A DNA stretch of 64,000 bases from a virus (Duplodnaviria; Heunggongvirae; Uroviricota; Caudoviricetes). The translations under genes were made by a program, and so were the position numbers. Positions 4,573 to 6,390 of this stretch are shown here, in pieces (the first letter of the stretch is position 1; each line of letters opens with the position of its first letter). The stretch spans positions 13,246-77,245 of IMG/VR virus record IMGVR_UViG_3300013936_000013; one strand, 5' to 3'. The notes under the pieces were generated by a model. That model saw only the letters and a program-made list of their open reading frames with translations, was not told the origin of the DNA and ran no database searches.

Positions 4573-4601
4573 TTGACAAATCTTGCAGGCGGTGGTATAA
4601 T
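4573..4601 (+). promoter_or_regulatory. Consensus sigmaA promoter driving a short hairpin RNA
   Basis: TTGACA-17-TATAAT with TG extension; GC-rich structured tract and terminator-like hairpin follow. Confidence 0.85.
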
Positions 4602-4713: not shown

Positions 4714-4777
4714 TGGTGGGAAAGGTGGGTTTCGCACCCACATGGCTAGCTTGTTCTACTACTTGAACTACTCTCCC
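4714..4777 (-). ncRNA. tRNA-like RNA lacking the anticodon arm (64 nt, encoded 3-prime ACCA)
   Basis: Minus strand: GGGAGAG TA GTTC-AAGTAGTA-GAAC AAGCTAGCCAT GTGGG-TGCGAAA-CCCAC CTTTCCC ACCA = 7-bp acceptor stem, D arm, 11-nt linker, T arm, discriminator + CCA; promoter at about 4837-4866. Confidence 0.75.
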
Positions 4778-4868
4778 AGAAAGAGGGCAGAGGGTGCGCT
4801 AACCCTCCACCGCAGTTCCTCTCTTATTGCATTATCATTATACCATAATTTTTTTTATTTGTCAACTG

Positions 4869-5534
4869 TTACCACAGATATTTCTGCATCTTTTTGTGCT
4901 GGCGGTAACAGTGGGCGAGAATCTGGGTTTCAATCAAAACGTCCTCAAGACCAGTGTGCTTTTCAGTAAAATCCGCTTCACCGCTAATATAGCGGTACAG
5001 AATTTCAGCGGTCTTTCTTACCTGTCCGTTAGCGCACACATAGCCATTTTCTTTACACCACTTAATGTAGGTAGGTTGCTTACAAATGGTAGATTGTGCC
5101 ATTTTCATAGTGTCCATGAATCGAGTGCCGTAGGGGAAAAAGTAACGCTGCTTCGAGGAAGTTTCATAGCGTAAAGTCACATGGGTAGAACGATAATCAA
5201 ACCGTGCATTGTGAGCGCAAACATCGGTGATATGATACTTTTTCATCAAAGTCCAAACCGCCTGCCGAATCTGGTAGAGAGTAGCCATCTTGCGTTCACC
5301 CGCCCAAATCTGTTCCCAATACTGGGGAATTTTGTTGGCGTAGTATGCGGATTGCATCAAATCCGCACAGCCTTTGAAAATATCCTTGTTTACAAAGCTG
5401 GCGGTTTCATACACATTGCCATGAGTGTCAACAACTGCACAGCCAAGGTCATACAGCAGGGGGTCATTCAAACCGTTGGCGGTTTCAGTGTCAATCATCA
5501 GAATGTAGTGACGGCGGAAATCAATGTTGTTCAT
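4869..5534 (-). CDS. DEDDh 3'-5' exonuclease (DnaQ/epsilon-like)
   Basis: Exo motifs IDTET, AHNARFD, DTMKM, HTGLED. Confidence 0.85.
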   Translation of the reverse strand: MNNIDFRRHYILMIDTETANGLNDPLLYDLGCAVVDTHGNVYETASFVNKDIFKGCADLMQSAYYANKIPQYWEQIWAGERKMATLYQIRQAVWTLMKKYHITDVCAHNARFDYRSTHVTLRYETSSKQRYFFPYGTRFMDTMKMAQSTICKQPTYIKWCKENGYVCANGQVRKTAEILYRYISGEADFTEKHTGLEDVLIETQILAHCYRQHKKMQKYLW

Positions 5535-5863: not shown

Positions 5864-5983
5864 GTTTGCTACCTCTCTTTATTCTGTTGTATCTCTCACT
5901 GGATATAGTATATCATATCTTGAGCCTATTGTCAATACCAAGTTTTAGGATGTGGGCGGGCATTTATTTGTGCAAATTTGCTA

Positions 5984-6012
5984 TTGACAAAACCTGTGAG
6001 CTGTGGTATAAT
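5984..6012 (+). promoter_or_regulatory. Consensus sigmaA promoter driving a short hairpin RNA
   Basis: TTGACA-17-TATAAT; hairpin CGTGCCGC-N11-GCGGCACG at 6020-6046. Confidence 0.85.
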
Positions 6013-6093
6013 AGTAAAACGTGCCGCATTGACCAGAGGCGGCACGAAAAAAGCTAGGGTTCCATCTGCGCCCTAGCTAATTATACTATCTGT

Positions 6094-6390
6094 TTACTCG
6101 GTGACTTCTACCTCAAACCATTCGCAATCTCTATCATCAAGCCAACTCTCTGCTTCGCTTTTAGCCTGTTCTCGAATATCATCTTCAATCCGCTGTCTGC
6201 CTTTTTCAGTTTTCATCCGTCTATACAGGTCACAACAAGAGTAAAGGTCATTCACAGTTTCTGCGACCCAATCTTTGTCTTTCAAAAGTTCTTCAACACG
6301 ATGGTTAAAAAGCTCTTCTTCTACATCCTTATTCATACGGACTTCAACAGGCTCACCATCGACAATATGCACCCAAACAGTCATGTTCAT
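6094..6390 (-). CDS. Hypothetical protein (98 aa)
   Basis: ORF track; AAGGAGA RBS. Confidence 0.7.
   Translation of the reverse strand: MNMTVWVHIVDGEPVEVRMNKDVEEELFNHRVEELLKDKDWVAETVNDLYSCCDLYRRMKTEKGRQRIEDDIREQAKSEAESWLDDRDCEWFEVEVTE

Follow-up and report, generated by a model that had tools for sequence, protein, structure and literature searches.

A shape-conserved tRNA-like domain without an anticodon arm, followed by a trailer complementary to early ribosome-binding sites, in a TAG-recoded phage

In plant mitochondria (PMC1920247) and in the 5S rRNA leader of Haloferax (PMC4326828), cuts by RNase P and RNase Z at t-elements make the ends of neighboring RNAs. The C4 RNA of phages P1 and P7 is described as an antisense RNA that is matured by RNase P and covers a ribosome-binding site (RBS) (PMC5320573). 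In Staphylococcus aureus, an anti-Shine-Dalgarno (anti-SD) motif in the icaR 3′ UTR pairs with the Shine-Dalgarno sequence of its own mRNA (PMC3868564). YrlA RNAs are circularly permuted (T arm, closed acceptor stem, D arm), carry a GNCGAAN0-1G motif and are associated with an rsr gene (PMC4201824, RF02553), and T-boxes read the anticodon of a tRNA (PMC4919913). No description of an armless phage tRNA, or of a cassette such as the one reported here, was found in the searched literature, a search outside which most subscription papers lay.

The cassette is located in a window of 64,000 nucleotides (the whole stretch of DNA that was analyzed), which is part of a complete 141-kb phage genome. Read-through of TAG lifts the coding density from 58% to 86%, and the phage is thus TAG-recoded. 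Its early region, to which the armless element belongs, consists of short promoter-driven cassettes with 42 called genes and almost no in-frame TAG. The nearest annotated relatives are distant (30-45% protein identity; Enterococcus phage EF1, about 40%; phAss-1, 30%), and blastn against cultured phages returned terminator-like chance matches only. The promoter type and the phAss-1 paper (PMC10607447) suggest that the host belongs to the Clostridia or, more broadly, the Firmicutes. The tRNA cluster, at least about 12 kb away from the armless element, contains a ROOL RNA (RF03087, 305 bits; L113:3144-3739, minus strand). At about 140-700 of the same locus and strand, the 5′ half of a tRNA-Pro, up to its UGG anticodon, an HNH-like ORF with in-frame TAG codons and an intact tRNA-Pro together resemble a tRNA gene into which a homing endonuclease has inserted. 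At about 700-800 and 5983-6100 (also minus strand), we observed permuted tRNA halves, with the CCA-bearing 3′ half before the 5′ half, within a repeat that contains ACAGCAA, as well as a tRNA whose anticodon region carries a long insert. The ACAGCAA motif recurs between tRNAs. The cluster also encodes an amber-suppressor tRNA (CUA) at C1:139665-139763 (minus strand), with a U1-A72 Gln-type acceptor and a long variable arm, which ARAGORN mis-calls.

On the minus strand at 4777-4714 of the window, we observed a 64-nt tRNA-like element with acceptor, D and T arms, in which an 11-nt linker replaces the anticodon arm. A preliminary description of this DNA had claimed a 7-bp acceptor stem, A73 and an encoded CCA, and these are present: GGGAGAG and CUUUCCC form 7 of 7 pairs (4777-4771 with 4724-4718), followed by A73 and CCA at 4717-4714. 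After U8 and A9 comes a D stem with 4 of 4 pairs and an 8-nt loop. The D arm had been called canonical-looking, but its loop is not canonical and contains A18 G19 and not G18 G19. In this elbow variant, the T loop carries the matching G55, and position 15-48 is A-U. The T arm, with 5 of 5 stem pairs and the variant loop UGCGAAA, is as described before, and the 11 nt noted where anticodon and variable arms belong are the linker at 4752-4742. Canonical tRNA features are present as the 7-bp acceptor, the D arm, the 5-bp T arm and the discriminator with CCA, whereas the 5-bp anticodon stem, the 7-nt loop and U33 are absent, with the 11-nt linker in all 43 copies that we recovered. Folding of the 64-mer gave exactly the armless shape (z = -3.3; none of 200 shuffles did equally well). 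Running tRNA finders on the element, as had been suggested, gave a divided answer: in a search of a short stretch, the Rfam tRNA model RF00005 matched at 35.8 bits, above its cut-off of 29, by treating the anticodon arm as a deletion, while ARAGORN made no call at 4777-4714. There was no tmRNA call either. Position 3:70 is G-C in 30 and A-U in 1 of the aligned variants and never G·U, and the D stem is paired, in agreement with the earlier statement that an element lacking G3·U70 is not the tRNA-like domain of a tmRNA. This is the one perfect armless fold in the genome; relaxed rules add one more.

The 43 full-length copies, of which 34 are distinct and which are about 90% identical, belong to the phage's own species. 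None has the arm, and their linker length is constant, with 9 of the 11 linker columns invariant. Close relatives with a full anticodon arm had been named as the finding that would speak against a mimic, and there were none among these copies, nor was a full-length parent tRNA seen among 75 viral matches. Across 31 aligned variants, pairing is intact in all 496 cells of the acceptor, D and T stems. Over all helices of the cassette, 99.9% of the cells are paired, with 17 distinct pair changes that are compatible and 1, in the terminator, that is disruptive. Both sides changed at four pairs (3:70, 49:65, 50:64 and 51:63). No shuffle out of 500 attained four such pairs, a figure that is not a probability since the 31 variants are related sequences, and slid controls were paired in about half of their cells. 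U8, A9, A14, A15, A18, G19, U48, U54, G55, C56, A58 and the U at -1 are invariant. Discriminator N73 is A in 24 variants and G in 7. Of the 31 variants, 29 retain CCA and 2 have CUA in its place, C74 and A76 being invariant. The alignment of homologs, advocated in the preliminary description, thus revealed both covariation and a conserved short linker, and it indicates that selection acts on shape and not on identity.

The upstream neighbor is a DnaQ-like exonuclease gene (221 aa; 4869-5534, minus strand), which served as the anchor for finding relatives; next to the orthologous gene of more distant phages, the element is absent. A strong promoter had been placed at about 4837-4866, and we indeed found a sigma-70/sigma-A type promoter at 4865-4837 (minus strand), in which TTGACA-17-TATAAT with an extended TG matches the consensus at 12 of 12 positions and the boxes are kept in relatives. 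With a promoter of its own and covarying stems, the proposal of a promoter-driven tRNA mimic under selection has held up. The transcript would start near 4830. It begins with a leader whose AGAGAGG (4824-4818) is identical to the early-gene RBS word and pairs with the trailer in predictions for the uncut precursor; no conserved ORF lies behind it. The mean predicted pairing probability of this leader-trailer helix is 0.89 over 31 variants, and in the predictions the tract opens once the leader is gone. The helix is without covariation, and 2 of 217 cells are mismatched. The leader word is followed by a 9-bp hairpin with a variable 8-nt loop (4811-4786), paired in 279 of 279 cells with all changes wobble-compatible and with 7 of 8 loop columns varying; sought elsewhere, this hairpin was seen in this phage species only. 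At the other end is an intrinsic-terminator-like hairpin of 13 bp with a short U run (4670-4637; hairpin, 4670-4641), paired in 402 of 403 cells. As read from the alignment, its U·G to U-A changes show selection on the minus-strand RNA. A convergent plus-strand promoter at 4573-4601 could drive antisense read-through. It is one of seven perfect plus-strand promoters (window positions 2677, 4573, 5984, 7097, 10565, 14429 and 15532), each of which has a G+C-rich hairpin behind it and faces the terminator of a minus-strand early cassette. The other six plus-strand cassettes have no such RBS word behind their promoters, and an inverted-gene relic is thus not the simple explanation. Short structured RNAs without an ORF were also seen directly behind early promoters at 4479-4436 and about 9735-9690 of the window (minus strand).

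The promoter, the upstream stem-loop and the terminator hairpin of the preliminary description are all in place, but it overlooked the conserved 43-nt trailer between CCA and terminator, and with this trailer the most likely function changes. In the trailer, 8 of 43 columns vary, versus 37 of 71 four-fold sites of the adjoining gene (p = 0.0004). It contains two anti-RBS tracts, namely, UAUUACCUCUCU at 4705-4694, the complement of the early-gene RBS AGAGAGGUAA(UA), and a second at 4687-4677, the complement of the GAAAGGA RBS type. Nine sense-strand copies of AGAGAGGUAA occur, each ahead of an early start codon, and the sole antisense copy is in the trailer. Between the trailer and ten early RBS regions, 10 to 12 perfect pairs can form; at least 9 were counted for 11 of 42 early RBS regions versus 7 of 169 other genes. 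In a post hoc test, 31 of 20,000 shuffles reached 11. Among 24 anti-RBS tracts from related phages, the trailer tract ranks first on its own RBS set. The fit to the cognate promoter-proximal RBS set was above the mean for 20 of the 24 tracts, which were hand-picked and come from related phages (permutation p = 0.003).

Anti-SD tracts before terminators are frequent in 93 loci of related phages, also in plain 3′ UTRs without a tRNA domain, and tail and tRNA domain may thus be independent neighbors. Such a module, with the tract just before the intrinsic terminator of early genes, was seen at L551, L554, L556, L565, L571, L587 and L604 and also at L605, L627, L628, L428, L429 and L431. Outside this species, an anti-SD tract comes after 7 of 31 T-arm hairpins (three or four independent cases) versus a background of 3-5%. 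Tract and terminator can be preceded by a full tRNA-Lys, by a minihelix without D and anticodon arms or by the odd cloverleaf of phAss-1. In the window itself, another C/U-rich anti-RBS tract (12496-12480, within 12496-12456, minus strand) lies in a 3′ UTR directly before a terminator. It was not found in three relatives and was therefore not counted as support.

Anticodon-less tRNA bodies are not confined to this phage. Four pattern scans that left no room for an anticodon arm returned at least 319 distinct matches in at least 104 unrelated families. Of the listed matches, 119 have a perfect 7-bp acceptor, a feature that was no part of the pattern, versus 3.4 expected. Among the 104 families listed, positions 18 and 55 covary (GG with U55 in 91, non-GG with G55 in 10, discordant in 3; p = 3e-11), a count based on the presence or absence of the D-loop GG alone. 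For the 15-48 pair, A15-U48 (48) and G15-C48 (43) dominate the families listed, a result that depends in part on the two patterns used. Eight of the 104 listed families encode CCA, and the first pair, 3:70, the discriminator and the acceptor sequence are free. A tRNA lies within 500 nt of 31 of the listed modules, and 65 have no tRNA in their locus. RNase P recognizes a 12-bp top helix and the elbow. The covarying elbow, together with the free acceptor, CCA and discriminator, therefore argues that the class is selected for these RNase P-read features and not for decoding. Even without an antisense part, the data show anticodon-less tRNA bodies to be a common selected RNA module. One family is found in a chromosomal leader of bacteria, flanked by a sigma-factor-like gene and a zinc-ribbon gene of the CxxC type. 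This conserved armless module with A18/G55 was seen at L207, L215, L221, L227, L230, L237, L270 and about 15 further loci of Eubacteriales MAGs; L207 gave no Rfam match. A D-loop AGUA with a T-loop UGC is common in full-length phage tRNAs, and an A18/G55-elbow phage tRNA is the likely parent of the armless element. The A18/G55 swap, by which the pseudouridine-55 site is lost, was observed at L469-L543 in full-length phage tRNAs of many isotypes.

The cassette thus combines a tRNA-like structure selected for its shape, its own promoter and terminator and complementarity to early RBSs. We favor, with a probability of roughly 0.45, the reading that it joins a C4-like antisense RNA, which lowers early genes, to a t-element-like cap that serves its processing and stability. 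The gene would be a roughly 190-nt early-promoter transcript composed of leader, hairpin, armless tRNA domain, 43-nt trailer and terminator. Its tRNA domain presumably arose from an A18/G55-elbow phage tRNA by deletion of the anticodon arm and would have been retained because only the top half and the elbow, the conserved parts, are needed. Processing by RNase P is plausible given the paired 12-bp acceptor/T helix, the intact elbow and the invariant U at -1. Host RNase P would cleave at G1 (4777) and strip off the leader that masks the trailer in the precursor. The product would be stable, its 5′ end being tightly paired and its 3′ end formed by a terminator; alternatively, RNase Z may free the trailer alone. 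The freed trailer could then pair in vivo with the RBS shared by early mRNAs, to which it is complementary, and early translation would be damped as the RNA accumulates. In B. subtilis, a CCA is an obstacle to RNase Z, and the trailer is then lost to exonucleases. The CCA kept in 29 of 31 variants would thus suit a trimmed 64-nt product rather than a retained trailer.

Such a product is what the best-surviving alternative proposes, a possible but doubtful one, in which a free, CCA-ended, non-decoding 64-nt mimic acts as a decoy for readers of the acceptor and elbow, and the trailer is an ordinary 3′-end module. Rel/RelA, EF-Tu, tRNA-3′-end toxins and tRNA-modifying enzymes would be its equally tentative targets, and anticodon nucleases could not cut it. 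Besides the retained CCA with invariant C74 and A76, a precedent exists in the tmRNA-domain-only RNA of phage DS6A, which was proposed to titrate SmpB (PMC4131195). Moreover, related phages carry solo non-decoding tRNA-shaped RNAs with an encoded CCA near the same exonuclease gene. RNAs of this kind, with 94-115 nt and remodeled middle arms, were seen at L555:10863, L558:6555, L566:6908, L619:7439, L633:6645 (phAss-1), L598:10809, L616:529 and L554/L565/L627. Five have G3·U70 and A73-CCA (alanine identity), two have U73 and most are without an anti-SD tail; six loci scanned gave no Rfam match. However, no identity elements of the armless element are conserved among relatives, CCA is rare class-wide (8 of the 104 families listed), and the partner genes that were sought (TROVE, CCA-adding enzyme, PTH2 and release factor) were not found. 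A decoy would also leave the conservation of the trailer and its tuning to the phage's own RBS unexplained. Two of the targets suggested earlier are not borne out: T-boxes need the anticodon that is missing here (PMC4919913), and a synthetase substrate is not supported because the discriminator (A in 24, G in 7), 3:70 (G-C or A-U) and CCA (CUA in 2 of 31) vary. An antisense RNA with a tRNA-like cap and a free decoy are not mutually exclusive.

We consider it improbable that, as for mascRNA, the tRNA domain serves only as a mark for the cut by which an upstream 52-nt hairpin RNA, the active part, obtains its 3′ end. The hairpin stem is fully conserved as RNA, and similar hairpins precede the armless module of an unrelated family (L084, L122) and, in relatives, the anti-SD tracts found next to the exonuclease gene (L605, L628, L604, L431). 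Yet 7 of 8 loop positions vary, which leaves no conserved recognition surface.

Slightly less probable still is a dead tRNA gene, that is, a deletion relic that has not eroded yet. The close similarity of the relatives (about 90% identical) and the absence of the element beside the orthologous gene in more distant phages would be compatible with it, and the same genome offers an example. Outside the window, at G000:C1:139290-139357 (locus L114, minus strand), a second armless fold is a tRNA-Asp(GUC) from which 13-14 nt of the anticodon arm are deleted. Its CCA has become CTA and further C-to-T changes are present, while two relatives (G001 and G002) retain the whole gene; no other tRNA-Asp was called in this genome. 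A single deletion can thus produce the armless shape. The decay of this fresh relic nevertheless looks different from the fixed, covarying element at 4777-4714: a full gene in relatives and pair-breaking decay, the marks of a pseudogene, are found at C1:139357 and not at the element. One genome thereby offers a side-by-side contrast of a selected armless copy and a fresh deletion relic. With 43 of 43 copies armless at one linker length, 17 compatible pair changes versus 1 breaking, a perfect promoter and a terminator of its own and a distance of about 12 kb from the tRNA cluster, the dead-gene explanation is largely refuted by covariation.

A relic of or helper in amber suppression, whose linker CUA would pair with UAG in mRNA or in the upstream hairpin loop, is very unlikely: the phage is TAG-recoded and the loop UUAGC can pair with the linker GCUAG, but loop variants break this pairing in four sequences without compensation, CUA stands between two G residues in an unstructured linker without the U33 context of an anticodon loop, a real CUA tRNA is encoded elsewhere, and the class shows no enrichment of self-complementary linkers (15 versus 11 ± 2.9). 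The suppressor-relic idea of the preliminary description is thus not supported, and the CUA is the coincidence that it allowed for. Other candidates were rejected, namely, kissing or codon-anticodon pairing of loop and linker (broken in these four variants), a homodimer via a palindromic linker (no class enrichment, p = 0.11), T-box-like pairing of the leader with the CCA end (17 of 248 cells mismatched) and a hidden ORF on either strand (starts and frames unconserved, many nonsynonymous changes and frameshifts among relatives).

If the antisense reading is true, it would explain in a simple way how a large family of uncultured gut phages with recoded stop codons makes its early-to-late switch, and tRNA-shaped genes that are otherwise discarded as pseudogenes would gain a function. 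More speculatively, the tRNA remnant could be an RNase-P-operated switch in large gut phages, whose unmasked tail shuts the whole early regulon via the RBS word common to its genes. Such a switch would be one use of tRNA modules lacking the anticodon, which are very widespread in phages and bacterial leaders and escape standard tRNA finders.

The features tested place the cassette outside tRNA, tmRNA domain, Y RNA and C4. Similarly to YrlA, it is an elbow mimic with D and T arms, of a kind found in phages, and YrlA can be cut by RNase P. Unlike in YrlA, the arms are in normal order, and there is neither a GNCGAAN0-1G motif nor an Rfam match; Rsr/Ro60 (PF05731) is absent from the phage genome, although a very divergent form could be missed. 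DUF2693-FD (RF02926), salivarius-1 (RF03030) and skipping-rope (RF02924) gave no Rfam match at E values up to 10. With the tRNA-like domain of tmRNA, and with the RNA of DS6A that consists of this domain only, the element shares an acceptor and T arm without an anticodon stem-loop in a phage-borne RNA (PMC4131195), but it has no G3·U70 and no tag frame, and a conserved 4-bp D stem stands where the tmRNA domain has an SmpB-binding D loop. Like C4 as described in PMC5320573, the cassette encodes a phage RNA complementary to the ribosome-binding region of the phage's own mRNA, with maturation by RNase P being a prediction here. C4 uses the loops of a three-hairpin fold against one operon, whereas the cassette has a single-stranded tail behind a true tRNA remnant and a motif common to about ten early genes; the Rfam C4 fold gave no match. 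The icaR 3′ UTR likewise has a C/U-rich tract near the terminator that is complementary to a Shine-Dalgarno sequence. It acts on its own mRNA, and since the phage transcript has no conserved ORF, the target would here be in trans. As in t-elements, a non-decoding tRNA-like fold with a conserved, intact T arm lies inside a longer transcript. The cassette differs from them in its phage origin and probable Firmicutes host, in its full D arm, elbow and encoded CCA, in having a noncoding anti-RBS tail as neighbor and in that cutting is predicted. As part of the reading to which we gave a probability of roughly 0.45, the cassette may work like a t-element joined to a C4-like or icaR-like anti-RBS element.
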